NCBI GenBank assembly: GCA_965263175.1
Contig: OZ253587.1
Span: 136,105 to 200,104 of the forward strand
Source: Chloroflexota bacterium
GTDB taxonomy: Bacteria > Chloroflexota > UBA11872
Direction: 5' to 3'
DNA length: 64,000 nt
The notes under the pieces were generated by a model. The model was not told the origin of the DNA, did not search any database, and worked only from the letters and a program-made list of their open reading frames with translations. The position numbers were made by a program, and so were the translations under genes. Below are positions 651 to 61,593 of this stretch, one piece after another. Each line of letters opens with the position of its first letter. Within the stretch, counting starts at the first letter, position 1.

Positions 651-1910
651 ATGACCACCCAACTCATCAAGGCTGGCGCCAACTGGGTCGCTGGCGAACG
701 GTTCTTTGACCGCGAGGCGGAACTCCAGGATCTGAGAGAGCGGGTCCGGGACGGAACGCACACGCTCCTGACCGCACAACGGCGCATGGGCAAGACCAGC
801 CTGGTGCGCGAACTCCTGCGCCAGTTGGAAGGCGAAGGACACTTCGCCAGCGTTTTCGTAGACCTCGAAGCGGCAAACGACCCGGCCGACGCCGTGGCCG
901 AGATTGCGATTCAGGCTAGACCGGTCCAAGGCGCCTGGACCCGCATTCGGTCCGGGTTTGCTAATCAACTGCGCGATGTCCGCGATCACATCGAGGAAAT
1001 AGGACTTCTTGAGCTGAAGGTGAAGCTCCGCGCCGGCATCGACGCCGGGAACTGGCAGCACCGGGGAGATCAGGTCTTCGCGGCGCTGGCGTCAAGCGAG
1101 AAGCCAGTGGTGCTGGCCATCGACGAGCTCCCCATCCTCGTCAACCGTCTGCTGAAGGGTCCTGACTACCGCGTGACCCCCGAGCGGAAGGCCGCCGCGG
1201 ACCAGTTTCTCGCCTGGCTGAGAAAGAACGGACAAGACCATCGCAGTGCAGTGACTCTGATCATCTCAGGCAGCGTCAGCCTCGAACCGGTGCTTCGGCA
1301 AGCAGGTCTCAGCGCCCACGCCAACATCTATTCACCCCTGGAGTTGCATCCCTGGAGCCACGACACGTCCAGCCGCTGTCTGGCCGCCTTGGCCCGTACC
1401 TATCATCTGGACCTTTCGGAGGACGTGCGAACCGAGATTTGCCACCGCCTACGTTGTTGCGTTCCGCACCACGTGCAGCAGTTCTTCGACTACCTGCACC
1501 AGCATCTCCGCAGGAACGGCAGCAACACGGCGACCGTCGAAGATGTCGAACTGGTTTACAGACGTGAGTTGCTCAGCGTTCGAGGGCAGATCGACCTGGA
1601 GCACTACGAGGTGAGGCTCAGGCTGGTTCTCGGAGACGAGGGCTATGGGACCGCGCTCGAATTGCTAACCGAGGCGGCCGTGAACGACGGGCTGCTGACC
1701 CCACAGGCCCTTCGGCTTTACCGCGACGCGCTCGCGTCGTCAGACGCTGATGGCGGACTTCCAATTGAAGACGTGCTCTACGCGCTGGAACATGACGGGT
1801 ATTTGGAACGAAACACTGGCGGATACCGCTTCGTGTCCCGGCTGCTTCAGGACTGGTGGCTCGCCCGTCACGGTCAGTTCTTCACCCCCATCGAGGATCG
1901 CGACATATAG
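651..1910 (+). CDS. AAA+ ATPase, COG1672/Arch_ATPase-like (STAND-type NTPase)
   Basis: Walker A RRMGKTSLVREL, Walker B-like VVLAIDELP, about 419 aa. Architecture is typical of PF01637-like predicted ATPases. Confidence 0.6.
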   Translation: MTTQLIKAGANWVAGERFFDREAELQDLRERVRDGTHTLLTAQRRMGKTSLVRELLRQLEGEGHFASVFVDLEAANDPADAVAEIAIQARPVQGAWTRIRSGFANQLRDVRDHIEEIGLLELKVKLRAGIDAGNWQHRGDQVFAALASSEKPVVLAIDELPILVNRLLKGPDYRVTPERKAAADQFLAWLRKNGQDHRSAVTLIISGSVSLEPVLRQAGLSAHANIYSPLELHPWSHDTSSRCLAALARTYHLDLSEDVRTEICHRLRCCVPHHVQQFFDYLHQHLRRNGSNTATVEDVELVYRRELLSVRGQIDLEHYEVRLRLVLGDEGYGTALELLTEAAVNDGLLTPQALRLYRDALASSDADGGLPIEDVLYALEHDGYLERNTGGYRFVSRLLQDWWLARHGQFFTPIEDRDI

Positions 1911-1924
1911 AAGGTAAGGCTGCA

Positions 1925-4030
1925 ATGGCGGTAGCAGTTAAGAAATACAATCCCGGCTTCCTCAGCGACGACGACATCGTAGCTTCGTTCTGCGTCCGAT
2001 CCGCGGAGTTCGAGTCGCTCATCGAGTCCCTGCGCGAGTGCGACGCTAGCTCCAGCCCTCACTCGCTCGTCATTGGACCCCGCGGCAGCGGCAAGACGCA
2101 CTTGCTGCTTCGCGTGGCGGCCGAAGTGCGTCGGGACCCTGTCCTTGATGGTCTCTTTCCGATCGTATTTGCCGAGGAAAGCTACGAGGTCACGACGTGC
2201 GGTGAATTTTGGTTGGAGTGCCTGGGTCGCCTGTTCGGACAGGCGCCCAGCGAGGAGCGCGACAACCTGCGCCTGACCTACGACGAGCTCCGAACCGTTA
2301 CCGACGATCAAGTCTTGGCTGACCGCTGCATCGGCTCGCTGCTCGACTTTGCGGATCGTCACCAGACTCGACTGCTACTGCTGGTCGAAAACCTGAACAT
2401 GCTTTTGGCCGACATCGACGATCGCGAGGTCGGCTGGCGGCTGCGACAGACCCTGCAGACCGAGCCCCGAATCATCCTGTTTGGTACCGCCACCAGCCGA
2501 TTCGAAGAAATCGACAACCCTGAGCACGCCCTCTACGACCTCTTTCGGGTCATCAGTCTACGTTCACTCGACACCGACGAATGCAAGACTCTCTGGCAAA
2601 CCGTTGCTGGGAAGCCCTCCACCGGCGAAGCGGTTCGCCCACTCGAGATCCTCACCGGTGGCAACCCGCGTCTTCTCACCATCATCGCCCGCTTCGGCGC
2701 GGGCAGGTCGTTCCGCGACCTGATGGAGAACCTGCTCGACCTGGTCGACGAGCACACCGAGTACTTCAAAAGCCACCTCGAATCCCTCCCGCCCCAGGAA
2801 CGCCGTGTCTATCTCGCGCTGGCACGCCTCTGGAAGCCCTCCACCACCAGGGAAGTCGCCGACCTCGCGCGCCTCAACACCAACGCATGCAGTGCCCTTC
2901 TCCGGCGCCTCGTCCAGCGCAGCACGGTCGCCATCGAGGGCGGTACGCCCCGCCGTCAGCTGTATTACCTCACCGAGCGCCTCTACAACATCTACTACTT
3001 GTTACGTCGAGGCAAAGGCACTGACCGACTCGTTCAGGCGTTGATTGACTTTATGATATGCCTGTACTCGCCATCTGAGATAGCGGATGTCATCGAGAGT
3101 ACTATCGAGGACTCCTATCGCTTAAATGTTCTCCCACAGATTGTCGGAGCACAGATGGCCGGTGCACTGCTGAACAAGGCGCACTCCCTGCAAGGGATGG
3201 GTAAGAATGACGATGCTATCGCTCTCTATGACCAAGTGATTCAGCGGTTCGGCCCTGACCATGGCCCTGGCAATGAATTGCAGGTAGGTGCCGCATTGAC
3301 GAGCAAATCATCGCTGCTCATTCAGCTTGGTCGGGGACACGAGGCTATCGTTACTTGCGAAGAAGTCATGGGCCAATACAGAACGGGAAAGGTAGAATTC
3401 TCTGCAGTACTATCGGCGTATGCGCTTTGGGTTAAAGGCATAGCGATAGACGCGGTTGGCGATCCTCCAAAGGCTCTTGATACATTCAATCACGCCCTAG
3501 CGTATATTGACACCCTTGAAGCGCCGGTTCCTGACTTCATTATAGCTGGCATTCTACATTGCAAGGGATTAGTGTTTGTTCGGCTTAATCAGCTTGACAA
3601 AGCGCTTGCTGCATTCGACGAGGTCCTAACGCAATATGGCATGGCGTCGGAACTTCAGCAAACCGGAACAACAGCAATGGTCCTCATAAGTAAGGCTCTC
3701 GTATTGGATCAATTCGATCGCACCATTAGCCTCACCGAATTATCCTTTTTACTGAAGAGTCTGGCTGAGCACGGCAGCGTTCGTCCCGGCAGCACCGAGG
3801 CGCTGCTTCCCTTCGTTGCCGCCGTCGAACCGGCCAATGCCCTCGACCTCCTTCAGGCCTCGCCGGCGGCTCACCTTCTACTGCCCCTGATAACCGCCCT
3901 GCAGCAGGAACTGGGACAGAATCCGCAGGTCGCCAAAGAGGTCGCCGAAGTCGCCAGCGACGTGCGGACCAAACTGGCCGAAGCCAGAGTCAGACATGCG
4001 CATGCCCGGGCCCAACTCCACGCATCTTGA
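1925..4030 (+). CDS. AAA+/STAND-like ATPase with C-terminal TPR-like repeat region
   Basis: Walker A GPRGSGKTHLLL. A GGTAAGG Shine-Dalgarno sequence lies before the ATG at 1925. The C-terminal half is helical and repeat-rich. Positions 3040-3780 are about 50% GC, against about 68% for the flanks. Confidence 0.55.
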   Translation: MAVAVKKYNPGFLSDDDIVASFCVRSAEFESLIESLRECDASSSPHSLVIGPRGSGKTHLLLRVAAEVRRDPVLDGLFPIVFAEESYEVTTCGEFWLECLGRLFGQAPSEERDNLRLTYDELRTVTDDQVLADRCIGSLLDFADRHQTRLLLLVENLNMLLADIDDREVGWRLRQTLQTEPRIILFGTATSRFEEIDNPEHALYDLFRVISLRSLDTDECKTLWQTVAGKPSTGEAVRPLEILTGGNPRLLTIIARFGAGRSFRDLMENLLDLVDEHTEYFKSHLESLPPQERRVYLALARLWKPSTTREVADLARLNTNACSALLRRLVQRSTVAIEGGTPRRQLYYLTERLYNIYYLLRRGKGTDRLVQALIDFMICLYSPSEIADVIESTIEDSYRLNVLPQIVGAQMAGALLNKAHSLQGMGKNDDAIALYDQVIQRFGPDHGPGNELQVGAALTSKSSLLIQLGRGHEAIVTCEEVMGQYRTGKVEFSAVLSAYALWVKGIAIDAVGDPPKALDTFNHALAYIDTLEAPVPDFIIAGILHCKGLVFVRLNQLDKALAAFDEVLTQYGMASELQQTGTTAMVLISKALVLDQFDRTISLTELSFLLKSLAEHGSVRPGSTEALLPFVAAVEPANALDLLQASPAAHLLLPLITALQQELGQNPQVAKEVAEVASDVRTKLAEARVRHAHARAQLHAS

Positions 4031-7311: not shown

Positions 7312-7434
7312 GAGACCTTTGCACAACGCCCTTCGTCCGCGAAGGTGCGGCCCGCTCTTGCTCCCTCTCCCTGTGGGAGAGGGTTGGGGTGAGGGTCTTC
7401 CGGGCAACAGTCCCCCGGATTACGCAAAGGTCTC
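7312..7434. mobile_element. MITE-like element, full copy, about 123 bp, with TIRs GAGACCTTTGC...GCAAAGGTCTC
   Basis: Terminal inverted repeats plus an internal perfect 9-bp hairpin, CCCTCTCCC-TGT-GGGAGAGGG. The same family recurs at least six more times in the window. Confidence 0.75.
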
Positions 7435-17375: not shown

Positions 17376-17438
17376 GAGACCTTTGCCCAACGCCCCGCGT
17401 CCTCGACGGTGCGGCCCGCTCTTGCTCCCTCTCCCTGT
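17376..17438. mobile_element. MITE fragment (left half), interrupted by the IS5-family insertion
   Basis: GAGACCTTTGCCCAACGCC...CTCTTGCTCCCTCTCCCTGTG, followed directly by the IS terminal repeat. Confidence 0.65.
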
Positions 17439-18628
17439 GGAGACCTTTGCTTAACTGCGGCATGCACGGCCGAGGGGGTGAGATCGGGGCCAAACGGCGG
17501 CCAGCGGCGGCCACAACGGCCGGGCGCCGGGGGATCGTCGGGCGGTCCCGTGGGGTTCCCCCGCCGCGACGGCGCACGGATCCCACGTTAGCCACCGGCC
17601 AGCGCCTGCAAGCGGCTCGCGCGCCGCAGGTTGTAGGCCATACATTTGAACCACAGTTCCACCGCGTTCCGCGCCAGCCCCAGGTAGCGCACGGTCCGGT
17701 ACCCGTAGCTCCGCTTCAACGTCCCAAAGACGTGCTCCACCGGTGCCCGCACCTTCCCGATCAGCGCATTGCGCCGCTGCTGCCAGGAGGGCAGCCCGCG
17801 CTGGTGCTTGTGCGAGCGGTGCATGATCCGGTCGTTAATCCCCTGCGCCCGCAACCGCGCCCGCCGGGCCTTGGACTCGTAGGCCTTGTCCGCGTAGACC
17901 GCCCGCTCGTCGCCGCTGATCAACGTGTCCGCCACCTCGCTTTCGTTCACGTGCGCCGGCGTCAGCACGGCTCGCCGGATCAGCCCCGACGCCGCATCGA
18001 CCCCCAGGTGCGCCTTGTAGCCGAAGGGGGCGCGCCCACCTTTGCGCGTCCAACTCGCCTCCGGGTCGGTGGCACTGCCCGCCCCCGGCCCCTCGTCCAT
18101 CGACGGCCGCCGCGCCTGCGCCGCCACCAGCGTCGCGTCCAGGAGCGTGCCCGCCTTGACCAGCCAGCCGGCGGCGTCCACTTGCCGGGTCACCTCGGCG
18201 AACAAGCACTCGCCCAAGCCCCGGTCCGCCAGCGCGGTCCGAAAGCGGCTGATCGTCGAGTGGTCGGGCACCGGGTCCTGCAGGCCCAGCCCGACGAAGC
18301 GCCGGAACGACAGCCGGTCCCAGAGCGCCGCCTCGATCTCGGGGTCGGAGGCCTGGTACCACTGCTGCAACAGCAACACCTTCACCATCAGCAGCGGCGG
18401 ATAGCTGGGCCGCCCCTCGGGGGCGGCGTAGATGTCGCTGACCACGACCGCGAGCCGCTCCCAGTCCACGACCTCGTGGAGCTGGTCCAGCCGCGCGTTA
18501 CGGCCCACCGGCGGCGGCAACCACGCGTCCACGAACGAGGCGTCCCCTACCTGTCGATGCATGGGCCATCTCCACCAAAGTCCCGTCGTCCCCATGGTGG
18601 CCGCATAGCCCAGTTATGCAAAGGTCTC
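17439..18628. mobile_element. IS5-family insertion sequence (about 1.19 kb), copy 1
   Basis: Imperfect TIRs GGAGACCTTTGCTTAACTGCGGCATGC / GGAGACCTTTGCATAACTGGGCTATGC (the right TIR read as reverse complement). Flanked by the 6-bp direct repeat CCTGTG. Encodes one DDE transposase. Confidence 0.7.
17588..18595 (-). CDS. IS5 family DDE transposase
   Basis: N-terminus YPPLLMVKVLLLQQWYQASDPEIEAALWDRLSFRRFVGL (InsH-N/DUF772-like). C-terminus VEHVFGTLKRSYGYRTVRYLGLARN. 335 aa. Confidence 0.8.
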   Translation of the reverse strand: MGTTGLWWRWPMHRQVGDASFVDAWLPPPVGRNARLDQLHEVVDWERLAVVVSDIYAAPEGRPSYPPLLMVKVLLLQQWYQASDPEIEAALWDRLSFRRFVGLGLQDPVPDHSTISRFRTALADRGLGECLFAEVTRQVDAAGWLVKAGTLLDATLVAAQARRPSMDEGPGAGSATDPEASWTRKGGRAPFGYKAHLGVDAASGLIRRAVLTPAHVNESEVADTLISGDERAVYADKAYESKARRARLRAQGINDRIMHRSHKHQRGLPSWQQRRNALIGKVRAPVEHVFGTLKRSYGYRTVRYLGLARNAVELWFKCMAYNLRRASRLQALAGG

Positions 18629-18857
18629 CCTGTGGGAGAGCAACTGTGTGGCACGTCAAACGCCAATGGACCCTGCCGCTCTTTCTCCTTCTCCCTTGAG
18701 GGAGAAGGCTGGGATGAGGGTGGCTGCTGCCTCCAGCAACCACGCCAAATCGGCAGCAACCCGCCGCCCCTTCGCCGCCTCTTGCTCCCGCTCCCTGTGG
18801 GAGAGGGTTGGGGTGAGGGTCTTCCGGGCAACCCACACGGGGTTACGCAAAGGTCTC
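18629..18857. repeat. tandem MITE-core variants (a divergent core followed by a right-half MITE ending in GCAAAGGTCTC)
   Basis: CGCTCTTTCTCCTTCTCCCTTGAGGGAGAAGGCTGGGATGAGGG parallels the canonical core CGCTCTTGCTCCCTCTCCCTGTGGGAGAGGGTTGGGGTGAGGG. The canonical right end lies at 18776-18857. Confidence 0.55.
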
Positions 18858-20559: not shown

Positions 20560-21357
20560 ATGTCGTACGACAGCTTTGTTGCGTCGAGAGAGGCTGACGT
20601 GGCGGACAACACCATCGCCCTCGAGTTGCACGGTTCCGACTTTGTCCTAGACGACTTGGGCACAGCGGTCGAGCACTTTCGGGGGCTCCTAAGCGACTTG
20701 GCGACCGAAGTGGCCGAGGGTGTCGTGGTTACCTGACGGCTTGGCCGTCTCGGGACCGGAAGCATCGTCGCCGAAGTTCGCTGCGAAGCCGAAGATCCCA
20801 CGGCGGTAGACCGGGTCATCGCCGCCTACGACTGCGTCGGCGCGGCCCTGGCCAATGGCGAGCCCATTCCTTATTCAGAGGCTATCGTGGCGCACACAGA
20901 CCGCCTGACCGGCCTGATTAACGGTCGAGTCACGTCGGTCCACTTCAGAACCAGGGGCCAGGTGCACGAGGTTCAACAGCCCGCGCCGAGCGCGCTCGCG
21001 GAACAAGACCCGCACCTGGACTCGTTCGGCGCGGTCGAAGGCATGGTCGACACGCTGGCTTGGCGCCGCGGGATTCGATTCGTTGTCTATACGGACGACG
21101 AAGCGCGTGGCGTTCCCTGTTACATGAGCCTCGAGGACGAGGCAAAGATGGCGGGGCTCTGGCGCAAGCGTGTGCGCGTCGAGGGACTGCTCCGGCGCGA
21201 TTCGAACACGGGCTTGCCCTTGTCCATTCGTGACGTGACCAACATTGAGGTCCTCGAACCGCCAGCCGCCGAGCCCGAGGACCTCTGGGGCATCCTGCCA
21301 ACCGTTGGCGACCGCAAGCCGGAGGAGATCATCCGAGCGGGGTGGGATGGCGTCTGA
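20560..21357 (+). pseudogene. upstream partner of the PIN toxin, 265 codons in one frame interrupted by a single in-frame TGA at 20734-20736. The track ORF 20887..21357 is the part after the stop.
   Basis: ATG at 20560, then the TGA, then the same frame continues into the conserved module DSFGAVEG...RKRVRVEGLLRRDS...EEIIRAGWDGV. The stop overlaps the PIN start (ATGGCGTCTGA). Confidence 0.4.
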
Positions 21358-21826
21358 CCGTCCACGGCTCTATTGGGACTCGTGTTGCTTCATCTCATAC
21401 CTCAACGGGGACGCCACACGTTCAGAACTGCGCACGCTCATGGCTGATGCCCAGGCCGGCGGCGTGCTGATCGTCACCTCGGCTATTTCGGTCGCGGAAG
21501 TGGCGTACGTTGCGCCGGAGTCGCCGGGCCGCCCGCTGGATCCAGATGTTGAGCGCCGGATCGAAGACATGTGGCGCTGGCGGCAGGCTATTCGGCTGGT
21601 CGAAGTCCAAGCCGGCCTCGCCGCACGTGCGCGAACCCTGCTTCGCCACGCGCTAACAAACGGCTGGGAACGGAACCCTCGCGATGCGATTAATCTCGCC
21701 TCGGCCCGGCAAGTGTCCGCATCGACGGTTCACACCTACGACGAGCGATGGGACCGTTACGCGCAGGTCATCGGCAGAAACATCGAGCGCCCAGATCTGC
21801 TATATGTGTCGCAGGCCGCGCCATAA
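21347..21826 (+). CDS. PIN domain protein (VapC-like toxin)
   Basis: MASDRPRLYWDSCCFISYLNGD... has the PIN acidic motif (D of LYWDS). Translationally coupled to the upstream gene by an 11-nt overlap. Confidence 0.6.
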   Translation: MASDRPRLYWDSCCFISYLNGDATRSELRTLMADAQAGGVLIVTSAISVAEVAYVAPESPGRPLDPDVERRIEDMWRWRQAIRLVEVQAGLAARARTLLRHALTNGWERNPRDAINLASARQVSASTVHTYDERWDRYAQVIGRNIERPDLLYVSQAAP

Positions 21827-21999: not shown

Positions 22000-22033
22000 G
22001 AGACCTTTGCACAACGCCCTTCGTCCGCGAAGG
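22000..22033. mobile_element. MITE left part, split by the IS1595-family insertion. The right part is at 24817-24914.
   Basis: GAGACCTTTGCACAACGCCCTTCGTCCGCGAAGG followed by the IS inverted repeat. The MITE resumes at ...CCGCGAAGGTGCGGCCC at 24817. Confidence 0.65.
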
Positions 22034-22061
22034 GGCTTATAGCGATAGCTAGCCAAACCGT

Positions 22062-22226
22062 CTAATCCGCGCGGGCCGCATCGCGCCGCGCCTGGGCCTC
22101 GCGCTCGAAGTCCCATTCGGCTTTCGGCGGCCCCTGCATAATGGCGCGCGCGATATTCTCCGGCGTGTCGGGGATTGGTTCGGGCAGCGGCTTGGGCGGG
22201 CGGCCGCGCGTGCGCTTCTTCGTCAT
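22062..22226 (-). CDS. small basic protein (54 aa) with an AT-hook-like RGRPPK motif, translationally coupled (ATGA overlap) to the methyltransferase
   Basis: MTKKRTRGRPPKPLPEPIPDTPENIARAIMQGPPKAEWDFEREAQARRDAARAD. The ATG overlaps the methyltransferase TGA. Not present in the ORF track because it is shorter than 60 aa. Confidence 0.35.
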   Translation of the reverse strand: MTKKRTRGRPPKPLPEPIPDTPENIARAIMQGPPKAEWDFEREAQARRDAARAD

Positions 22227-23782
22227 ACGAGCCTCATTTGCATCGGCTTGCCGGTGTACGGGTCGGCCATCAACGGCAAGACGGGCGGGAGCTGGTTGAA
22301 GTAGTCGGCCATGGACCAGCGTTGCATCCGCGGGTAGGCCATGCCGCCGACCTGAATCGTGCCCATGCCGGCCGTCTCGGTTCGCGCGGCGTGCGTGTCT
22401 ACGCGATCCACGGTGAGATAGCAGCCGAGGGCCGCGCGGTCACGGGCGATGACGTGGTTGAAGTCGCGCAAGTTGCCGAGGCTGAACGCGCCGCCCTTGA
22501 CTTGAGCGAGCGCGAGCCGCGTCACGTCGGCCTCGGGTTGCTCCCAGACCGTGCCCCGGCCGTCCACGCCACCATCCGCCACCTGCTTCGTATTGGGCAC
22601 AAAGCCATTAAGCCGGGTGACCGCGCAGGTCTCGAACGCGAACGGACGTTCGGCGGCCAGCTTGGATGCGCCCGCCAGGTCGTAGGGGATGCCGTAGGCG
22701 GGAATGCTTGGGTCTTGGAGCCGCCGGTCGCGGATCACGTCAATGGCAAAGGGCGAGATATCGACGCCAAGCCACGGGCGGCCCAACTTGTGCGCAGCCT
22801 CGACGGTCGTGCCGCAGCCGCAGAACGGGTCAAGCACAACGCCATCCCTTGGGCTGGACGCGGCGATCACACGCTCAAGCAATGCACGCGGTTTCTGGGT
22901 CGCGTAGCCGAGGCGCTCTTTTCCAAGAGCCACCGGGATGTCACTCCATAGATTGCTCACCGCCACGCCGTCCCATTCGTCACGGTACTGCTTGCGAAAC
23001 GGCTTGTTATTGGCGTTGTAGTGGATGCGGTTTTCGGCATGCAGGCGCTTGAGGTTGGCTCGACTGACACGCCAGCCGTGCGGCGGGTTGTGCCCGTTCC
23101 ATTCGTATTTCGGTGAGGCATGGAGACCTGCATCGCTGTACAGGTCAGCCACGGCTCGATAGACCCCTTGCTCATCGCGATGCTTGAACGGTCGCATGCC
23201 AGGCGTCTCTTTACGGACGCGCGGGATGGTCACGACGTGCTGCGGCTTGGCGTAAAACAAGACGAGGTCGGTCACCGTCCCGAACGTCCTGGTCGGACCA
23301 CGTGTGCCCTTGACGCCTGACCGCTCCCAAACGATCTGATTCCTGAAGTTCGCAGCACCGAAAATGCCATCAAGCAGGATTTTCAAGTAATGGCCTGCGG
23401 TCGGGTCACAGTGCAAGTAGAGGCCGCCCGTCGTCTTCAGCAGCCGATGGCAGTGTTCGAGCCGTTCGGCCATGTAGGTCAGGTAGCTGAGCATCCCCGA
23501 CGGCCCCAGGATGCTGTACAGGCCGACGATGGCGGCGTGCGCGGGCCGTGCGATGGCTGAACGGTAGGCGTCCATGCGTTCGGCCGCGTCCGCGTCCCAG
23601 TGCCACGTATCGGTGAAGGCGCGGTATTGCGCGCCGCCGACCGTCTTGCCAAACAGCACGTTGTAGTTCGATTGCGAGTTGAACGGCGGGTCGAGGTACA
23701 CGAGGTCCACGGTCTGATCGTCCCACTCGCGCATCCATTCCAGGCAATCGCCGTAGTACAGCGCGTTCAGCGTGGGGTGCAT
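22223..23782 (-). CDS. beta-class N6-adenine/N4-cytosine DNA methyltransferase (N6_N4_Mtase) with a C-terminal Mrr-like (PD-(D/E)xK) nuclease-type domain
   Basis: Motif IV VYLDPPFNS near the N-terminus, then motif I VLDPFCGCGTT. The C-terminus has ADGGVDGRG...(23 aa)...LAQVKGG, resembling the Mrr_cat DGGxDG...QxK signature. Confidence 0.6.
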   Translation of the reverse strand: MHPTLNALYYGDCLEWMREWDDQTVDLVYLDPPFNSQSNYNVLFGKTVGGAQYRAFTDTWHWDADAAERMDAYRSAIARPAHAAIVGLYSILGPSGMLSYLTYMAERLEHCHRLLKTTGGLYLHCDPTAGHYLKILLDGIFGAANFRNQIVWERSGVKGTRGPTRTFGTVTDLVLFYAKPQHVVTIPRVRKETPGMRPFKHRDEQGVYRAVADLYSDAGLHASPKYEWNGHNPPHGWRVSRANLKRLHAENRIHYNANNKPFRKQYRDEWDGVAVSNLWSDIPVALGKERLGYATQKPRALLERVIAASSPRDGVVLDPFCGCGTTVEAAHKLGRPWLGVDISPFAIDVIRDRRLQDPSIPAYGIPYDLAGASKLAAERPFAFETCAVTRLNGFVPNTKQVADGGVDGRGTVWEQPEADVTRLALAQVKGGAFSLGNLRDFNHVIARDRAALGCYLTVDRVDTHAARTETAGMGTIQVGGMAYPRMQRWSMADYFNQLPPVLPLMADPYTGKPMQMRLV

Positions 23783-23785
23783 GGC

Positions 23786-24730
23786 CTAGGCGATGAGGCT
23801 CGCGCCGGTGAGTTGCTTGCCCTCGAATCCCCGCACCATCGCGGTCATCTGATCGATGGTGTCGAGGCTGCGCTGGTTGTAGCGGCCCTCGAACTCGCGC
23901 ACGTAGCGATGCAAGTGCTTCGGACTCATCTTGTGGTACACGCCGTTGTGACCGCGCTTCAACAGGCTCCAGAAGCTTTCCAGGCCGTTCGTGTGGGCCT
24001 GATCGTTCACCCACTGGTGCGTGCCATGCCGGACGGTTTCGTGATAGGGCAGGCCGCGATAGGCCAGCGCTTCGTCCGTATAGACCAACGCGCCGGGGTG
24101 CGTCCGCTCGCGCACGAACGTCCGCAACGTGGGGCCGGTGGTGTTCGGTACCACGTCGGCGCTCACGCGGCCTGTGGCGCGGTCCCTGACGCCAGCGACC
24201 GGCGTCTTGCCCACGGTGCCGCCACCGGCGTAGAGCTTCTTGTCGGCGTGCTTGTTCTTCTCCAAGCCGCCCACGTACGTTTCGTCGGCTTCGACCGGGC
24301 CGGTGAACGCGGGGTTTTCGTCGCGCCAGGTCTCGCGGATGCGGTGCGCGAGACGCCAGGCCGACGTGTAGGCGATGCCGAGGTCGCGATGCAGCTTCAT
24401 GGCCGCCGTGCCCTTGATGCCGGTGGACATCAAGTAGACCGCGATGGCCCAGACCTGGTAGTCGAGATTCGAGTTGGCCATGAGCGTGTCGGTCTTGACC
24501 GAGAAGTGCTTGCGGCAGGTGCGGCAGCGAAACGGCTGTGGCTTGCGGGATTTGACATCGGCCACGTTCTCCGACTCGCAGCGGGGGCAGCGTACGCCAT
24601 CGGGCCATCGGGTCTCAACGAACCAGACTTCGGCGGCGTCATTGTCCGGGAACATCCGCGTCACGTCCAAGAGGGACAGACCCTTGCGCTCGGCTCGTCC
24701 CGGCCCCTTGCGGCTCATGTTGCGGCTCAT
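23786..24730 (-). CDS. IS1595 family (ISXO2-like) transposase
   Basis: N-terminal zinc ribbon CPRCESENV...RCRTCRKHF, then the VEADETYVGG...KNKHADKKL hallmark of DDE_Tnp_IS1595. Confidence 0.75.
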   Translation of the reverse strand: MSRNMSRKGPGRAERKGLSLLDVTRMFPDNDAAEVWFVETRWPDGVRCPRCESENVADVKSRKPQPFRCRTCRKHFSVKTDTLMANSNLDYQVWAIAVYLMSTGIKGTAAMKLHRDLGIAYTSAWRLAHRIRETWRDENPAFTGPVEADETYVGGLEKNKHADKKLYAGGGTVGKTPVAGVRDRATGRVSADVVPNTTGPTLRTFVRERTHPGALVYTDEALAYRGLPYHETVRHGTHQWVNDQAHTNGLESFWSLLKRGHNGVYHKMSPKHLHRYVREFEGRYNQRSLDTIDQMTAMVRGFEGKQLTGASLIA

Positions 24731-24816
24731 CGCTCACCCCTTCGAATTGATACACAATTCTAGCCACCACTCGAAGGGATGTCAAGGCTTTTGGCTAGCA
24801 TTCGCTATAAGCCCCT

Positions 24817-24914
24817 CCGCGAAGGTGCGGCCCGCTCTTGCTCCCTCTCCCTGTGGGAGAGGGTTGGGGTGAGGGTCTTCCGGGCAACAGTCCCTCGGGT
24901 TACGCAAAGGTCTC
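24817..24914. mobile_element. MITE right part (continuation of the 22000-22033 fragment)
   Basis: ...GCGAAGGTGCGGCCCGCTCTTGCTCCCTCTCCCTGTGGGAGAGGGTTGGGGTGAGGGTCTTCC...GCAAAGGTCTC. Confidence 0.65.
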
Positions 24915-25028
24915 TACCTAGCGGCAGATTCCATGCCCAAGTCTGGTAGAGTTCTATTCTGTCCACGCAAATTGCCAGCCAACCATTGGCATCGCAGCCC
25001 GGCGGCAGCGACGGAGGAACGAGGAATA

Positions 25029-26954
25029 GTGTCAACATTTAAAGCGAATGCGTTCCTACTCAAGAATATTCTTGACAATGTTGCCAACGGTAGCATCCAA
25101 CTCCCCGACTTCCAGCGCGGCTGGGTGTGGGACGACGACCGAATAAAGGACCTGCTGGTCAGCATTTCGCGCGGCTTCCCTATCGGTGCCGTGATGACTC
25201 TCGATGCCGGTGGGGACTTGCGGTTTCGAAGCCGCTTAGTCGAGGGCGTGGATTCGAATGGCGACGATCAAGCATCCGAATACCTGCTGGATGGCCAACA
25301 GCGTCTTACGTCGCTGTACCAGGCGCTGCGGTATGAAGGGCCGGTAGAAACCCGCCACCGACCTGGTGGAAGATGGGTCATCAAGCGATGGTATTACATC
25401 GATATGCAAAAGATTCTGAATCCCCTGATCGATCTGGAGGACACCGTCGTTAGCGTTCCTGAAGACCGAGTTGTCAGGTCAAATTTCGGCCGTGATATCA
25501 CTTTGGATCTGTCCTCGTCTGACTTCGAATTCAAGCATCATATGCTGCCCACCGAGAAAGTCATGAATATCATGGATTGGATGCTTGGATACCTTGGTTA
25601 TTGGAAGGATCGCGGCGAGCATCCGGAGGGTGACCCGGTTGCTTTCTTCACCCAGTTCAAGGCTGCCGTGCTGGACAACTTCACCGACTACCAGTTGCCG
25701 GTCATCAGCCTTGGAAAAGGGACGTCCAAGGAGGCTGTTTGCACGGTCTTCGAAAAGGTCAACACCGGCGGCGTAACTTTGAATGTGTTCGAGTTGGTGA
25801 CCGCCGCCTTCGCTGCGGAAGTGGGCGAGGACGATTTCTCGCTGCGGGACGACTGGGAAGCGCGAAGCAGGCGGCTACACTCGGAATTCGGCGTGCTTCA
25901 AGGCGTCGGCGCTGATCAATTCCTGCAAACGGTGACACTGCTGGCGACCCAAGCACGGCGCAGGCGAGCTACTTCTGAGACTCCGTCGAGTCAACTTCCC
26001 GGTATCGGCTGTAGGCGAGCAGACATCCTCAACCTGACGTTCAGCGACTACCAGACATGGGCCGACCGAGTGGAAGAGGGATTCAGGGTCGCCGCAAAGT
26101 ACCTGCGCGGCCAATTCGTTTTCACCAGGTACAACGTGCCTTACAACACCCAACTGGTTCCCCTGGCAGCGTTGTACGTTGAGTTGGGCAAGGAGTTGGC
26201 GCCCGCCAACGCGCAGGATAAGCTGAACCGCTGGTTCTGGTGCGGCATCTTCAGCGAAGCCTATGGCGGCGGCGGTGAGACTCAGTTTGCTCGTGACCTC
26301 GAACAGGTTGCCAACTACATCCGAGGCGGCGCCGAACCGGAACTTGTTAGCCAGGCGAGCTTTGTTCCCGAGCGGCTGTTGTCGTTGAGAACACGCAACA
26401 GCTCTGCCTACAAGGGTCTGTACGCGCTGCAAATGAAAAGCAACGCGGCTGACTGGCGCAGCGATGGACCCTTGACCTTCGCCACCATCCATGACGAGAA
26501 CATCGATATCCACCATATTTTCCCGGTCGCCTGGTGCAGGCATGCCGATCCGGAGGTGCCAAGACACCTGTACGACTCGGTAATCAACAAGACGCCGATT
26601 GACGCGCAGACGAACCGAATCATCGGTGGTAAGGCGCCGTCCATCTACTTACCCCGCTTGCGCCGTCGTGATATCGGCGAAGAAAAATTGAATCGAATTC
26701 TTGAATCGCATTGGATCGATCCCAAGCTGCTTGAGAGTGATCTTTTTGGCGACTGCTTCGTCGAGCGCGGTCAAGCAATGCTCGACTTGATCAACCGCAC
26801 GATGGGTAAGCCAGCCGTCGATGGGCGTCAGGTCTTTCGCGATGCGCTGGACTCCGCCGGTCTGGCTGAGCAGGACAGCGATGACGAGGTTGAGTACGAT
26901 CCCATCGGCGACAGCGCCTTTGGCGACGAGACACTGGGCGGCGACAATTCATAA
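25029..26954 (+). CDS. GmrSD-like type IV restriction endonuclease candidate (N-terminal DUF262, C-terminal DUF1524/HNH-like)
   Basis: N-terminus LPDFQRGWVWDDDRIKDLLVSI...DGQQRLTSLY (DUF262 DGQQR motif). C-terminus DIHHIFPVAW (DUF1524 His-Me finger). GTG at 25029 with a GGAGGAA RBS. The upstream ATG at 24933 is an alternative start. Confidence 0.65.
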   Translation: MSTFKANAFLLKNILDNVANGSIQLPDFQRGWVWDDDRIKDLLVSISRGFPIGAVMTLDAGGDLRFRSRLVEGVDSNGDDQASEYLLDGQQRLTSLYQALRYEGPVETRHRPGGRWVIKRWYYIDMQKILNPLIDLEDTVVSVPEDRVVRSNFGRDITLDLSSSDFEFKHHMLPTEKVMNIMDWMLGYLGYWKDRGEHPEGDPVAFFTQFKAAVLDNFTDYQLPVISLGKGTSKEAVCTVFEKVNTGGVTLNVFELVTAAFAAEVGEDDFSLRDDWEARSRRLHSEFGVLQGVGADQFLQTVTLLATQARRRRATSETPSSQLPGIGCRRADILNLTFSDYQTWADRVEEGFRVAAKYLRGQFVFTRYNVPYNTQLVPLAALYVELGKELAPANAQDKLNRWFWCGIFSEAYGGGGETQFARDLEQVANYIRGGAEPELVSQASFVPERLLSLRTRNSSAYKGLYALQMKSNAADWRSDGPLTFATIHDENIDIHHIFPVAWCRHADPEVPRHLYDSVINKTPIDAQTNRIIGGKAPSIYLPRLRRRDIGEEKLNRILESHWIDPKLLESDLFGDCFVERGQAMLDLINRTMGKPAVDGRQVFRDALDSAGLAEQDSDDEVEYDPIGDSAFGDETLGGDNS

Positions 26955-28253: not shown

Positions 28254-28375
28254 GAGACCTTTGCACAACGCCCTTCGTCCGCGAAGGTGCGGCCGCTCTT
28301 GCTCCCTCTCCTCGGGGAGAGGGTTGGGGTGAGGGGTCTTCCGGGCAACAGTCCCTCGGGTTACGCAAAGGTCTC
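28254..28375. mobile_element. MITE-like element, full copy
   Basis: GAGACCTTTGCACAACGCCC...GGGTTACGCAAAGGTCTC. Same family as 7312-7434. Confidence 0.75.
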
Positions 28376-28416
28376 TATTGTGCGGGGGCGGGCCACTCAA
28401 CCTGAAAGGGGCTGAT

Positions 28417-28617
28417 ATGGGACGGAGTGTGACCCTGCGAATTACTACGGTGGTGTTGGTTGCAATCTTGCTGTTCGGCTATATCGGCTTTACTGAAGTC
28501 CGTATCTACACGCTCTTCAACTTCAACTGGCAGGCGATTCAGCGGATAGACGAGGCTGAGAAGCGAATACTTGAATATGAAGATGAAATTGCGCAATTCC
28601 GAGGAAGGACTAGGTAA
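28417..28617 (+). CDS. small membrane protein (66 aa) in a low-GC patch
   Basis: MGRSVTLRITTVVLVAILLFGYIGF... has one TM helix. About 45% GC. The TAATG overlap couples it to the next small ORF. Confidence 0.35.
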   Translation: MGRSVTLRITTVVLVAILLFGYIGFTEVRIYTLFNFNWQAIQRIDEAEKRILEYEDEIAQFRGRTR

Positions 28618-28763
28618 TGTACGGCGATCCGTTCCGGCCCCCAAAGCCAAAGCATATGTCAGTAGGTGATTATCTGAAGGCACAAGCGTTTCGAGGCTGT
28701 GTGTTGCCAATTGTAGGTCTTGCGATTCTCTTGGCTGTGCTCGTGAAACCAAAAGGCCCCTGA
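28617..28763 (+). CDS. small membrane protein (48 aa)
   Basis: MYGDPFRPPKPKHMSVGDYLKAQAFRGCVLPIVGLAILLAVLVKPKGP. Ends inside the terminator hairpin. Confidence 0.3.
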   Translation: MYGDPFRPPKPKHMSVGDYLKAQAFRGCVLPIVGLAILLAVLVKPKGP

Positions 28764-28786
28764 GCCAATGGTCGGCTCAGGGGCCT
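28753..28786. terminator. bidirectional intrinsic terminator-like hairpin GGCCCCTGAGCC-AATGGTC-GGCTCAGGGGCC
   Basis: 12-bp perfect GC-rich stem flanked by A/T-rich sequence on both sides. It separates convergent small-ORF clusters. Confidence 0.5.
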
Positions 28787-28794
28787 AGTAAATA

Positions 28795-28941
28795 CTATGC
28801 GCTTACTTTGATCTGCCACAGCCTCCACAGGACGACAAGGCCCGAAATAACCCATAGCGTTTCCGTTACCACAGGTATCACATAGTGCAGCAGCACGAAT
28901 GAAACTGGTGGGTCGGCGCTGATGAGCGCGCTAGTCATCAT
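28795..28941 (-). CDS. small membrane protein (48 aa)
   Basis: MMTSALISADPPVSFVLLHYVIPVVTETLWVISGLVVLWRLWQIKVSA. Its start overlaps the stop of another small minus-strand ORF (about 28931..29073). Confidence 0.3.
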   Translation of the reverse strand: MMTSALISADPPVSFVLLHYVIPVVTETLWVISGLVVLWRLWQIKVSA

Positions 28942-29078
28942 CCCGGTCCTTTAGGCGTTTTAGGATTCGCGGCAGGTTCCATGCAGCAGCCAGGGCAAGC
29001 ACTGACCACAGGAAATCGGCAATCCCGTCAGCCACGATTGAGATGGTTGCCGCCCAATCGCGTGATAAATACAAGAGA

Positions 29079-29273
29079 TCAATTCCCACGACGAACTTCC
29101 TTACAGGTCATACAGAAAATACTTCCATCGGGTCGATGCACCATGTTGGCCTCATTGCAGATAGGGCAGCGCATTCGACGACCAAAGAAAAAGAACCAAA
29201 TGAAGGCACGCCAGAACCAGTCCCAGGCGAGACGTGGGATGTTCAGGATTCGTTTCATGTGTTTGCCTTTCAA
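29079..29273 (-). CDS. small protein with TM segment and Cys4 zinc ribbon (CPICN...CMTC)
   Basis: MKRILNIPRLAWDWFWRAFIWFFFFGRRMRCPICNEANMVHRPDGSIFCMTCKEV. AT-rich codons. Confidence 0.35.
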   Translation of the reverse strand: MKGKHMKRILNIPRLAWDWFWRAFIWFFFFGRRMRCPICNEANMVHRPDGSIFCMTCKEVRRGN

Positions 29274-29322
29274 TTGAACAGCCCTGGGCAGGTTGTCCCA
29301 CCCACGGCTGCGAGCTTACATG

Positions 29323-29967
29323 CTACGACCTTGGTCTGTAGTCGCCGTCGCCGTATTGTGTCTTGTTCACGTCAATAGTAATAGAATCTTGGCATTTTCC
29401 AGTCCAAGGTGGATTACGGTCCCGCCAGTCCTGTGCACGGATTTTGTATTTGCCGTAGGTGTAGTCACTGTGTGACGGCTCACCTGATCCACCATCGGTT
29501 GTGTACATGTCGGAATTTCCACGCGAGACGTAGGTGCCCAAGAGTGGTGAAACGCCTGTTTCCCATCGGTACCACAACGCTGGTTCACCAAAGGCGATCA
29601 GGTAGCCGTCGTAGCACCATTCTGTCCGAGATGTGAGTTTGTACATCATGGCCCGAGTGATCGGGACACGGTGCATACGGATAACCGTTGTTTCCTTGCA
29701 CCTGACATCACCTGACGCCGCTGCCGACATTGCGGCCACGTTGAACATCGGGTAGTTTGGTGCGGCGCTCAGCACAGTGGTCGAGGCAAGTGGAACATCG
29801 CGAGTGATCACTTCAAATGTTTCAACCCCTGGTGGGTCAACCGGTACGTCGTCAATGGCAGGGGGTTCAGGTACCGGACCCTTCGCGCTGACGCTCCCGA
29901 TCATCAGGGCCGCCAGGAATGCAAGCCTCCGAAATTCAATTAACGCATTCAGGTGAAAAGTGGACAC
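29323..29967 (-). CDS. secreted hypothetical protein (Tat-like signal), low-GC
   Basis: Putative GTG start giving MSTFHLNALIEFRRLAFLAALMIGSVSA|KGP (RRxFL motif). About 50% GC against 68% for the genome. No family recognised. Confidence 0.4.
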   Translation of the reverse strand: MSTFHLNALIEFRRLAFLAALMIGSVSAKGPVPEPPAIDDVPVDPPGVETFEVITRDVPLASTTVLSAAPNYPMFNVAAMSAAASGDVRCKETTVIRMHRVPITRAMMYKLTSRTEWCYDGYLIAFGEPALWYRWETGVSPLLGTYVSRGNSDMYTTDGGSGEPSHSDYTYGKYKIRAQDWRDRNPPWTGKCQDSITIDVNKTQYGDGDYRPRS

Positions 29968-30038
29968 GTCGCCGGGAAAAGTGAACACATTCGGGCGAAA
30001 ATCGAACACATCGCCGCAAACACGGTGAACACGGCCTC
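29955..30038. repeat. four tandem about-21-bp direct repeats (GAAAAGTGRACACRTCGSCGS core), iteron-like
   Basis: Units at 29955, 29976, 29997 and 30018, lying at or within the 5' end and promoter of the secreted-protein gene. Confidence 0.6.
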
Positions 30039-30120
30039 CGCCTCCGTGTACGGCTGCCGGCACCCCAGCGGCGGCGCGTCGCCAATCCCGTCAGCCCCGC
30101 CCTGCCCGGCCGCGTCGACC

Positions 30121-41099: not shown

Positions 41100-42291
41100 G
41101 AGACCTTTGCAAAACCCTGGCGTGAGGTGGATCGTGGAGACCATCGTTCCCGCCGCCGAGAGTCGTGGCCATGCACCGTTCCACCCATTCGCCGGAACTG
41201 ATCGACGCCTGGCTGCCGCCGCGGGTGGGCCGCAACGCCCGGCTGGAGCGGCTGACGCAGCTCATCGACTGGGCGCCGCTGGAGGCGCTGGTGGCGGACC
41301 TGCACGCCGCGCCGGTCGGGCGGCCGAGTTATCCGCCGCTGCTGATGGTCAAGGTGCTGCTGCTCCAGCAGTGGTATCAGGCCTCGGACCCGGCGATGGA
41401 AGAGGCGTTGTGGGAGCGGCTGTCGTTCCGGCGCTTCGTGGGGTTGGGGCTGCAGGACGACGCGCCCGATCACTCGACGATCAGCCGCTTCCGCACGCGG
41501 CTGACGGCGGCGGGCGTGGCCGAGCCGCTGTTCGCGGCGGTGGAGCAGCAACTGGCCGCGCGCGGGCTGCTGGTCATGCAGGGCACGCTGGTGGACGCGA
41601 CGTTGGTGGACGCGCAGGTGCGCCGCCCGCAAGGGGGCGCCACCGGCGCGGGCAGCCCCCGGGACCCGGACGCGGCCTGGGCCCGGCGGGGCCGGCAGGC
41701 GCGCTTTGGCTACAAGCTGCACCTGGGGGTGGACGCCGAGTCGGAACTGGTCCGGCGCGCGGTGCTGACCCCGGCGAACGTGAACGAGACCCAGGTGGCG
41801 GACGAGCTGATCGCGGGGGACGAAGGGGCGGTGTACGGGGATGCGGCCTATGGCACGCACGCGCGCAGCGCCCGGCTGCGGGCGCGGGGGATCGCGGATC
41901 GGCTGATGCGACGGCCCACCAAACATCAGCCCCGGCTGGGCCCGGCGGCGCGCCGCCGCCACGCCCGGATCGAACAGGTGCGACGGCCGGTGGAGCACGT
42001 GTTTGGGACGTTGAAGCGCTCGTACGGCTACCAGCGGGTGCGCTACCGGGGCCTGGCCCGGAACACGACCGAGATGTGGTTCAAGCTGCTGGCCTACAAC
42101 CTGCGCCGCGCGGACCGCTTGCTGGCCGGGGCCCCGACCTCGCCCTAGGCGCGCTGCGCCCTCAACCAGGCGCGCAGGCCTGCGGGCAGGCCCCGGCGAG
42201 CGGCGACCCAGGCTGCCCCACCCCGCGCCACCCTCTCGCGGGTCGGGCGTCGCCCCTCGGCGCTGCGCAGGGCGCATTATTCAAAGGTCTC
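41100..42291. mobile_element. IS5-family insertion sequence, copy 2 (divergent from copy 1)
   Basis: TIRs GAGACCTTTGCAAAACCC... / ...TTCAAAGGTCTC. Flanked by the 6-bp direct repeat TCGTCA. About 1.19 kb. Confidence 0.65.
41165..42148 (+). CDS. IS5 family DDE transposase
   Basis: YPPLLMVKVLLLQQWYQASDPAMEEALWERLSFRRFVGL and VEHVFGTLKRSYGYQRVRYRGLARN. 327 aa. About 75% identical to the copy-1 transposase. Confidence 0.8.
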   Translation: MAMHRSTHSPELIDAWLPPRVGRNARLERLTQLIDWAPLEALVADLHAAPVGRPSYPPLLMVKVLLLQQWYQASDPAMEEALWERLSFRRFVGLGLQDDAPDHSTISRFRTRLTAAGVAEPLFAAVEQQLAARGLLVMQGTLVDATLVDAQVRRPQGGATGAGSPRDPDAAWARRGRQARFGYKLHLGVDAESELVRRAVLTPANVNETQVADELIAGDEGAVYGDAAYGTHARSARLRARGIADRLMRRPTKHQPRLGPAARRRHARIEQVRRPVEHVFGTLKRSYGYQRVRYRGLARNTTEMWFKLLAYNLRRADRLLAGAPTSP

Positions 42292-61484: not shown

Positions 61485-61593
61485 GAGACCTTTGCGTAAC
61501 CCGGGGGCGGTTGCCCGGAAGACCCTCACCCACAGGGAGAGGGAGCAAGAGCCGCCGCACCTTCGAGGACGCGGGGCGATTTGCAAAGGTCTC
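61485..61593. mobile_element. MITE-like element (shorter variant, 109 bp, opposite orientation)
   Basis: GAGACCTTTGCGTAACCCGGGGG...GCAAAGGTCTC. The paralogous locus at about 63725 lacks it (empty site). Confidence 0.75.

Follow-up and report, generated by a model that had tools for sequence, protein, structure and literature searches.

The 64,000-nucleotide stretch of Chloroflexota DNA analyzed here (the window) contains a 2784-bp element with three minus-strand genes (positions 22032-24815) that is almost certainly a transporter IS of the IS1595 family. Its cargo gene encodes a 519-aa fusion of a methyltransferase with a nuclease-type domain, and by a modest margin we favor the reading, proposed mechanism included, of an IS1595 transporter IS that carries a single-chain restriction-modification system. 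ISs with passenger genes, methyltransferases included, have been described since 2009, among them the transporter ISs (tIS) of the IS1595 family (Siguier, Gagnevin and Chandler 2009, as cited in PMC3129680, PMC2853133 and PMC11891212), and the cargo-carrying IS to which an earlier note on this DNA had drawn attention is thus of a known kind.

The element is delimited by terminal inverted repeats of 23 bp, namely GGGGCTTATAGCGATAGCTAGCC at the end of the small ORF (22032-22054) and, as reverse complement, GGGGCTTATAGCGAATGCTAGCC at the transposase end (24793-24815). They are identical at 21 of 23 positions, where shuffled sequences gave an expectation of 0, and their symmetric solution reads GGGGCTTATAGCGA(TA/AT)GCTAGCC. 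An 8-bp target-site duplication, TCCGCGAA, is located at 22024-22031 and 24816-24823. The two copies form the inner borders of an interrupted MITE, whose left half (22000..22031) ends and whose right half (24816..24914) starts with one of them. Joining the flanks with a single TCCGCGAA restores a 123-bp MITE that is near-identical to the intact ones at 7312-7434 and 28254-28375, which bears out the proposal that the IS1595 element resides inside a MITE. The earlier note had recognized a real element and a real 8-bp duplication, but its limits (22034-24816) and its duplication sequence (CCGCGAAG) have to be corrected to those given above. The ends GGGGCTTAT and GGGAATTAT fit the ISNwi1-group consensus ggnnatTAT, and the element presumably belongs to this ISNwi1-like group. 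Sharing of the terminal repeats with other copies was also checked: the terminus GGGnnTTATA recurs on sibling elements elsewhere (L026, L005, L004 and L044), two of which are likewise bordered by 8-bp duplications (TTTGATTT in L026, TTCACATA in L005), and inverted repeats were not definable for L001 (left end degenerate), L048 and L064. The element is present as a single copy in its 3.78-Mb contig, so that current activity of the transposase is presumptive, and a megablast search of the whole element against plasmids retrieved no match.

The gene at 23786..24730 (minus strand) encodes a 314-aa transposase that combines a zinc ribbon at its N-terminus with an ISXO2-like DDE domain and exceeds the cut-offs of PF12762 (4.5e-39), PF12760 (1.4e-08) and NF033547 (1.9e-51). 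Together with the short inverted repeats, the 8-bp duplication and a passenger inside the ends, it exhibits the features shared by IS1595 transporter ISs; the transposases of the sibling elements are 33-62% identical to it. The transposase stop codon lies 3 nt ahead of the methyltransferase start, and the stop of the latter overlaps the start of the small ORF as ATGA, just as previously noticed. Upstream of the transposase we found a putative sigma-70-like promoter (TTGACA-17-TAGAAT; 24757..24785, minus strand) that matches the consensus at 11 of 12 positions, with 0.3 such matches expected in shuffled sequences. Because it is the sole one within the element, the three genes probably constitute one operon.

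The backbone of the IS is defined by the cargo-less sibling L086 (1322 bp), which has the same ends and encodes only the transposase and the small ORF, thereby identifying the methyltransferase-nuclease gene as cargo. The order of components is inverted repeat, promoter, transposase, cargo slot, 54-aa protein, inverted repeat. In the window, the inverted repeats enclose the methyltransferase-nuclease gene, which is flanked by the transposase gene on one side and by the small ORF on the other; the ends of L026 and L005 likewise enclose all three genes. Cargo inside the ends with no part in transposition is what defines a transporter IS. The gene for the 54-aa basic protein (22062..22226, minus strand) adjoins the far inverted repeat. 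Its product contains KKRTRGRPPK, with an AT-hook-like RGRP core that is followed by IPDTPENIARAIMQGPPK..W; this motif had been pointed out before and is the majority form among 45 relatives. The predicted structure consists of two short helices (pLDDT 87.5, pTM 0.36), and no family was matched in Pfam, NCBIfam, PHROGs or PADLOC, while relatives occur in 260 representative clusters at E<=1e-3. The earlier assignment of this ORF to the modification and nuclease module has to be abandoned. Within the IS lineage this ORF belongs to the conserved backbone: it is retained in the cargo-less elements L086, L105 and L124, and in at least 23 of 46 loci it is preceded by the transposase. We also considered the small protein as a partner of the methyltransferase and rejected this, because among 84 methyltransferase loci its HMM matched only the window and L026; it tracks the transposase instead. 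The target of the small protein is probably the IS itself, whose ends it might contact at their AT-rich TTATA core through RGRP.

The cargo protein is a beta-class N6/N4 methyltransferase over most of its length, with a PF01555 score (126.8 bits) far above the cut-off of 26.7, so that the Pfam check of N6_N4_Mtase supports the earlier classification. Its catalytic half with DPPF (motif IV) comprises residues 1-150 (23333..23782, minus strand; PF01555 1.6e-36) and is followed by a variable target-recognition domain (residues 151-285; 22928..23332, minus strand) and the AdoMet-binding half (residues 286-364; 22691..22927, minus strand), in which TQKP and DPFCGCGTT, representing motif I, are found. 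DPPF and DPFCGCG are invariant in the relatives and align to those of CcrM and M.MboIIA; the motif order DPPF then FCGCGTT was thus read correctly, and degenerate motifs of the kind expected for an inactive enzyme were not seen in the alignment. The target base is probably N6-adenine, judging from DPPF and from CcrM and M.MboIIA being the best matches. Between the recognition domain and that of the seven closest relatives, identity is only 10-26%, against 66-95% for the parts on either side of it, and its GC content (0.60) is lower than that of the remainder of the gene (~0.67). The domain is swapped among relatives.

Residues 365-519 (22226..22690, minus strand) form a predicted nuclease fold of the PD-(D/E)xK type (Mrr/MspJI/FokI-type) with E384, D403/D407, Q427 and K429. 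The model contains the alpha-beta-beta-beta-alpha-beta core along with the conserved residues E, D and (E/Q)xK, so that a check for a missing nuclease fold came out in favor of the earlier proposal. The sequence DGGVDG...AQVK, on which an Mrr-like domain had been proposed, is present and invariant, but the window protein misses the Pfam cut-off of 21 for Mrr_cat (PF04471), with 15.9 bits for the whole protein and 19.0 bits for the domain alone. We nevertheless assign the domain to the Mrr type, because 69 of its 81 relatives match Mrr_cat at E<=0.01 (best 3.2e-07) and because of the predicted fold and the invariant catalytic-type residues. A profile search of PDB sequences and a Foldseek search of the PDB returned nothing significant for the domain. 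The predicted fold bears a D-x19-QxK signature of the Mrr/MspJI type, which corresponds to the PD-QxK variant reported in MspJI (PMC12707154) and at the C-terminus of BtgZI (PMC4081073).

Among known systems, the Type IIC enzyme BtgZI (PMC4081073) resembles the protein in layout, combining an N-terminal methyltransferase and a C-terminal PD-(D/E)xK variant with QxK (Q for E) in one polypeptide without a helicase; however, the methyltransferase of BtgZI is alpha-class, whereas that of the window protein is beta-class (DPPF, recognition domain, FxGxG) with an internal recognition domain. The catalytic domains of MspJI and AspBHI (Type IV), of the Type ISP enzymes LlaGI and LlaBIII and of FokI are 7-18% identical to the window nuclease domain, which is attached to a methyltransferase with its recognition domain and not to an SRA domain (MspJI/AspBHI), a helicase (LlaGI/LlaBIII) or a FokI-type recognition domain. 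Type III Mod proteins such as EcoP15I Mod are likewise beta-class methylases in which a swappable recognition domain occupies the center, and movement of recognition domains has been described for Mod genes (PMC3467074). In contrast to Mod, the window protein has the nuclease fused directly to the methylase and lacks a Res partner. We rejected a Type III-like system, given that no Res gene is present in the window element or in 82 sampled loci of the fusion. The characterized Type IIC enzymes are, to our knowledge, gamma-class or, in the case of BtgZI, alpha-class.

Based on domain analysis, methyltransferase and endonuclease domains are combined in one polypeptide, the arrangement that characterizes Type IIC, and the cargo would accordingly be a single-chain restriction-modification enzyme with a Type IIC-like layout. 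The transporter IS has transposed into the MITE, leaving the 8-bp duplication, with the cargo presumably co-transcribed with the transposase. The internal, exchangeable recognition domain would select the DNA sequence for the beta-class methyltransferase, and the sequence-blind C-terminal nuclease domain would cut nearby at unmethylated sites. We infer nuclease activity and restriction of unmethylated DNA from these features. If FokI and Type IIC enzymes are a guide, two molecules would have to pair before DNA is cut; methylation by the monomer would thus come first, with cleavage confined to higher concentrations. A regulation by assembly has been proposed for Type IIC enzymes (PMC12707154).

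The most serious alternative, which we nonetheless regard as rather unlikely, is a true orphan methyltransferase whose nuclease fold does not cut and merely serves as a module for non-specific DNA binding or oligomerization, like the extra C-terminal domain of CcrM; the cargo would then only alter the methylation pattern of its host or carrier, with a role in anti-restriction or gene regulation. This alternative draws on the distribution of the fusion, which extends well beyond this IS as an abundant family of solitary genes on chromosomes, plasmids and phages. The size of the family shows in at least 120 full-length protein clusters, in over 580 matching stretches in species-representative genomes and in over 420 viral contigs, and it is labeled only "DNA methyltransferase" in public records. 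Solitary methylases shield DNA from restriction on phages and plasmids, where the family is common, and the addiction value of one chain that combines cutting with protection is less obvious. The domain also weakly matches NA-iREase1, the "inactive restriction endonuclease" model, but this model is matched by 23 relatives vs 69 for Mrr_cat. Furthermore, E384, D407, Q427 and K429 are invariant in the 81 diverged sequences, down to ~50% identity, which would be needless for mere binding. The fast swapping of recognition domains is typical of restriction systems, albeit also of phase-variable orphan Mods. Additional evidence against an orphan comes from sibling ISs, whose cargo slot contains methylases together with HNH nucleases, either in one chain or as a pair. 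N6_N4_Mtase-HNH fusions occupy the slot of L087 and L104, and L102 harbors a C5 methylase with an HNH protein that matches REase_II; the slot of L113 contains a methylase with an ORF of no assigned family, and that of L085 a cargo other than restriction-modification. The siblings with such other methyltransferase-plus-nuclease modules belong to other phyla, and the recurrence of unrelated methylase-nuclease pairs in the same slot argues for a functional nuclease half of the window protein.

The single-chain restriction-modification reading also has to be weighed against neutral baggage, i.e., a solitary methylase-nuclease gene that an IS picked up on a single occasion, without any selective consequence for the element. 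An IS1595 transposase was found beside only 8 of the 82 sampled genome loci of the fusion (~10%), the element is single-copy here, and the slot also accommodates other cargo, namely a glycosyltransferase and a UDG-like protein. However, IS and fusion are found together in at least five phyla, where the transposases have diverged to 33-59% identity, several unrelated methylase-nuclease modules share the slot, and the gene spacing is tight (3 nt, then the ATGA overlap), all of which makes a neutral capture improbable. The IS1595 transposase is the only recurrent neighbor in the 82 loci. No conserved partner gene and no Res helicase-nuclease was found in them, in agreement with the earlier view that a separate restriction gene is missing. 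A role of the nuclease domain in transposition, e.g., in second-strand cutting at the IS ends as proposed by analogy with TnsA of Tn7, which is also a PD-(D/E)xK protein (PMC3424549), would fit the presumed co-transcription with the transposase but is very improbable, because 74 of the 82 loci are far from any IS1595 transposase, cargo-less siblings exist, and the methylase to which the domain is joined is sequence-specific and has a variable recognition domain; a transposition factor was dismissed in view of the mostly IS-free family.

The literature on the fusion and on restriction-modification cargo in IS1595 yielded general statements only and no paper on the fusion itself. The idea of an IS that mobilizes a combined modification and nuclease module stands with respect to the cargo and the nuclease-fold domain. 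The term "self-transmissible" was overstated, because an IS moves within the cell and requires a plasmid or phage for the transfer between cells. If the nuclease domain is inactive, the element is merely another IS with a solitary methylase, which has already been documented. An active one-protein enzyme would extend Type IIC by a beta-class branch in which the recognition domain is naturally swappable, which would be useful for enzyme discovery and the reading of methylomes. It would also imply that complete defense or addiction modules can be moved by even the smallest autonomous mobile elements, both within genomes and to plasmids and phages. The small protein conserved at the end of the element represents an uncharacterized backbone gene of the IS1595 lineage and is a candidate regulator of transposition. 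We tentatively consider, as a possibility well short of an even chance, that two phenomena are linked here, namely, a large uncharacterized class of single-chain beta-class restriction-modification enzymes and an IS1595 lineage with a dedicated slot for restriction-modification cargo. This slot may repeatedly take up minimal modules, be they Mrr-fused, HNH-fused or of two genes, and the IS1595 lineage may thus be a vehicle that is specialized in spreading, and perhaps in stabilizing itself by, compact restriction-modification systems.

The element occupies positions 22032-24815 (2784 bp). Its 23-bp terminal inverted repeats, GGGGCTTATAGCGATAGCTAGCC at 22032-22054 and a near-complement at 24793-24815, agree at 21 of 23 positions (0 such matches expected in shuffles), and if the ends are read symmetrically, the direct repeat is the 8-bp TCCGCGAA, which occupies 22024-22031 on one side and 24816-24823 on the other. 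The ends, the duplication and the three minus-strand genes of the earlier note are retained, but its coordinates and its repeat CCGCGAAG need a shift of one or two bases. On either side of the element lies half of a MITE; 14 places in the 64-kb window match the ends of this MITE, GAGACCTTTGC...GCAAAGGTCTC. When the flanks are fused with a single TCCGCGAA they give 123 bp that are near-identical to the intact MITEs at 7312-7434 and 28254-28375. This restored MITE is an empty-site control, which documents that the 2784-bp element came in by transposition, duplicating 8 bp, and that it lies inside a MITE as had been proposed. The targeted MITE family (about 109-123 bp, core CCCTCTCCCTGTGGGAGAGGGTTGGGGTGAGGG) is also found at 61485-61593, 17376-17455, 18613-18857 and 41100-42291, with several copies near the element. 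The IS itself is present once in its own genome.

The minus strand of the element encodes a 314-aa transposase (23786-24730), a 519-aa methyltransferase-nuclease (22223-23782) that starts 3 nt past the transposase stop, and a small ORF of 54 aa (22062-22226), whose ATG overlaps the stop of the 519-aa gene in the ATGA coupling noticed earlier. The transposase matches PF12762 (ISXO2-like DDE domain, 4.5e-39), PF12760 (IS1595 zinc ribbon) and the NCBIfam model "IS1595 family transposase" (1.9e-51), all above the curated cut-offs, in agreement with its initial assignment to the ISXO2 type. An exact tandem TTGCGGCTCAT, 12 bp apart, at the transposase start (24708-24730) yields MSRNMSRK with two in-frame ATGs. 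The sole promoter-like site of the element, a near-consensus sigma-70 promoter (TTGACA-17-TAGAAT), is located between inverted repeat and transposase start; this site, the 3-nt gap and the ATGA coupling jointly suggest a single operon. The element is almost certainly an IS1595-family transporter IS, and it was on this family that the cargo-carrying class was defined in 2009 (PMC3129680).

The same cargo within IS1595 ends was recovered from four other genomes, and the terminal repeats are common to these copies. Inverted ends enclose transposase, methyltransferase-nuclease gene and small ORF in all four loci, namely L026 from Rhodothermales (ends GGGAATTATATACGATAG..., duplication TTTGATTT), L005 from Longimicrobiales (ends GGGGATTATACGCC..., duplication TTCACATA), L004 from Gemmatimonadaceae (same type of ends, contig stopping exactly at the end, no duplication seen) and L044 from Verrucomicrobiota (same type of ends, duplication not resolved). 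In L001 the genes follow one another in the same order, the left end being degenerate. The sibling transposases are 33-59% identical to that of the window. Decay is evident in two of these elements: an insertion of about 1.5 kb interrupts the L005 transposase (1402-3895), and in L026 (3020-3947 and 6902-8227) the transposase is frameshifted, while an ORF beyond the element's boundary resembles, by eye, a group II intron reverse transcriptase. The dehalococcoidial locus L048 (1048-5989) harbors two tandem IS1595 transposase genes, 57% and 31% identical to the window transposase, upstream of the methyltransferase-nuclease; they may reflect nested elements, the right end not being resolved. In the 96-aa protein P0150 the methyltransferase N-terminus, through DPPFNS...DTW, is joined directly to small-ORF sequence, which looks like an internal cargo deletion within such an IS.

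Residues 25-350 of the cargo protein match N6_N4_Mtase (1.6e-36) with beta-class motif order, i.e., DPPF (motif IV, 31-34), a central region, then TQKP and DPFCGCGTT (motif I, about 295-326). Both stretches can be aligned with CcrM and M.MboIIA and are invariant in two alignments of 27 and 81 relatives, hence the methyltransferase is not degenerate and its proposed beta class holds. To judge from DPPF and the best matches, the target would be N6-adenine. In comparison with the seven closest relatives (P0002-P0008), identity amounts to 75-89% in the N-terminal catalytic half (residues 1-150), 66-82% in the AdoMet-binding half (286-364) and 84-95% in the nuclease domain (365-519), but to just 10-26% in the central recognition domain (151-285), whose DNA has a GC content of 0.60 versus about 0.67 around it. 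The same pattern is known as domain movement from Type III Mod genes (PMC3467074), and the divergence of this one domain implies that close relatives would recognize different DNA sequences.

The proposed Mrr-like domain comprises the last 155 residues. Pfam Mrr_cat scores 15.9 bits for the whole protein and 19.0 for the domain alone, below the cut-off of 21, a Foldseek search of the PDB with the domain gave nothing significant (best E 0.14), and neither did a profile search of PDB sequences. The assignment is nevertheless supported by other lines of evidence: Mrr_cat is matched by 69 of 81 relatives at E<=0.01 (best 3.2e-07), and the confident AlphaFold model (81 sequences; pLDDT 93.1, pTM 0.88) shows helices and strands in the order expected for a PD-(D/E)xK core. 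Comparison figures for the domain are 8.9 for MspJI, 8.7 for AspBHI and LlaBIII, 8.5 for the R.BspD6I small subunit and 8.3 for FokI and AF1548. E384, D403, D407, Q427 and K429 are invariant in aligned relatives, and D407-x19-Q427-x-K429 corresponds to the PD-QxK form of MspJI (PMC12707154) and of the BtgZI C-terminal domain (PMC4081073).

The protein search retrieved at least 120 full-length clusters (best matches at 49-70% identity), and matching stretches number 588 in species-representative genomes, drawn from a wide range of bacterial phyla as well as one archaeal MAG, and 429 in IMG/VR, where the nuclease domain is part of 77 of the 80 that were inspected. The gene also occurs on plasmids of rhizobia and actinobacteria, under the sole annotation "DNA methyltransferase". 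After clustering of all flanking ORFs from 82 loci, the only recurrent neighbor was the IS1595 transposase (8/82; upstream on the same strand in seven, downstream on the opposite strand in L010), and no restriction or Res gene recurs. The methyltransferase-nuclease gene therefore works alone, and roughly one in ten of the genome loci sampled is IS-linked. Three diverged paralogues (P0023, P0111, P0115) on one 3.95-Mb contig show that some genomes retain several members, presumably of different specificities.

The small ORF is real, given 260 matching representative clusters (E<=1e-3). Most of these are 45-75 aa long, and their consensus reads K-x-x-RGRP-x3-PMPEPIPDTPENIARAIM-x-GPPKK-x-W-x-Y; the ORF has no named family in Pfam, NCBIfam, PHROG or PADLOC. 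In its model the basic N-terminal stretch is extended and two helices are formed (pLDDT 87.5); with a pTM of 0.36, it is not globular. The earlier view of this ORF as part of the methylase-nuclease module had to be abandoned, since its HMM found none beside 74 IS-free methyltransferase genes and it is present in an IS without cargo. The latter, L086, is a whole contig of 1322 bp with ends GGGGATTATATACGTGTTTACCC that holds transposase and small ORF only. It stems from a small-ORF-seeded metagenome scan with 46 loci, at least 23 of which have an IS1595 transposase upstream on the same strand. Both genes are also adjacent in L105 and L124, and 0.7-2.4 kb separate them at the others, so the backbone consists of inverted repeat, transposase, cargo slot, small ORF and inverted repeat. 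One may speculate that the small protein binds the IS ends, given its RGRP core, its position by the end and the AT-rich TTATA core that the ends contain.

The slot accommodates diverse cargo: an N6_N4_Mtase fused to an HNH nuclease (L087, L104), a C5 cytosine methylase with an HNH protein that matches the REase_II model of PADLOC (1.4e-09; L102), a SPPY-type N6_N4 methylase with an unassigned ORF (L113), an NPPW-motif protein and an unassigned ORF without model match (L106; duplication ATAACATT), and glycosyltransferase-25-like and UDG-like proteins (L085), the former also recognized by eye upstream of the small ORF in L091. Modules that combine methylase and nuclease, from unrelated families, thus recur in one slot, and no other indirect argument speaks as strongly for a working restriction half in the Mrr-type domain of the cargo studied here. 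A non-cutting orphan methylase, which would conflict with this argument, is less likely than a cutting enzyme; neutral capture, as the glycosyltransferase-like cargo might suggest, and a role in transposition, which the cargo-less elements speak against, jointly share the remaining probability.

Prolyl-tRNA synthetase and an M3 peptidase bound the small variable tract in which the element lies. The IS adjoins a plus-strand PIN-domain gene (21245-21826, start probably near 21347; PF01850, 9.2e-14). An upstream 156-aa ORF without family match overlaps this gene, and the two, just left of the MITE (20887-21826, plus strand for both), are a likely toxin-antitoxin pair. On the other side, 117 bp downstream of the IS end, starts a plus-strand GmrSD-type gene (24933-26954; 673 aa, DUF262 N-terminal domain) for putative Type IV restriction (GC 0.53-0.59 versus about 0.67 nearby; best PADLOC match PDC-M55C, 3.6e-33), whose upstream region may be affected by the insertion. 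A second mobile element of the tract is an IS5/DDE_Tnp_1-type transposase (DUF772 and PF01609; 17588-18595, minus strand) adjoining MITE ends at 18613 and 18842, and a minus-strand 246-aa ORF without Pfam match (29323-30063) within a low-GC stretch (28300-29800, 0.52-0.54) is probably another acquired gene.

Methyltransferases are listed among IS passenger genes (PMC11891212), and Furuta et al. cite the 2009 paper for IS-flanked restriction-modification systems and solitary M genes (PMC2853133). Our literature search, outside ISfinder, REBASE and the 2009 IS1595 paper, found nothing on a beta-class methylase-Mrr-type fusion or a restriction-modification slot in IS1595. The family of enzymes and this use of the slot are possibly undescribed so far. 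The closest described layout is that of BtgZI, whose methylase is alpha-class in contrast to the beta-class enzyme here (PMC4081073). The most likely reading, at about even odds or slightly better, is a Type IIC-like single-chain enzyme. Its recognition domain would position the protein on DNA, the methylase would mark the site, and the sequence-blind nuclease would cut close to unmarked sites. If FokI and Type IIC enzymes are a guide, two molecules would have to pair for cutting (PMC4081073). In a cell that has just acquired the gene, methylation would then precede restriction, which is the assembly control suggested in PMC12707154.
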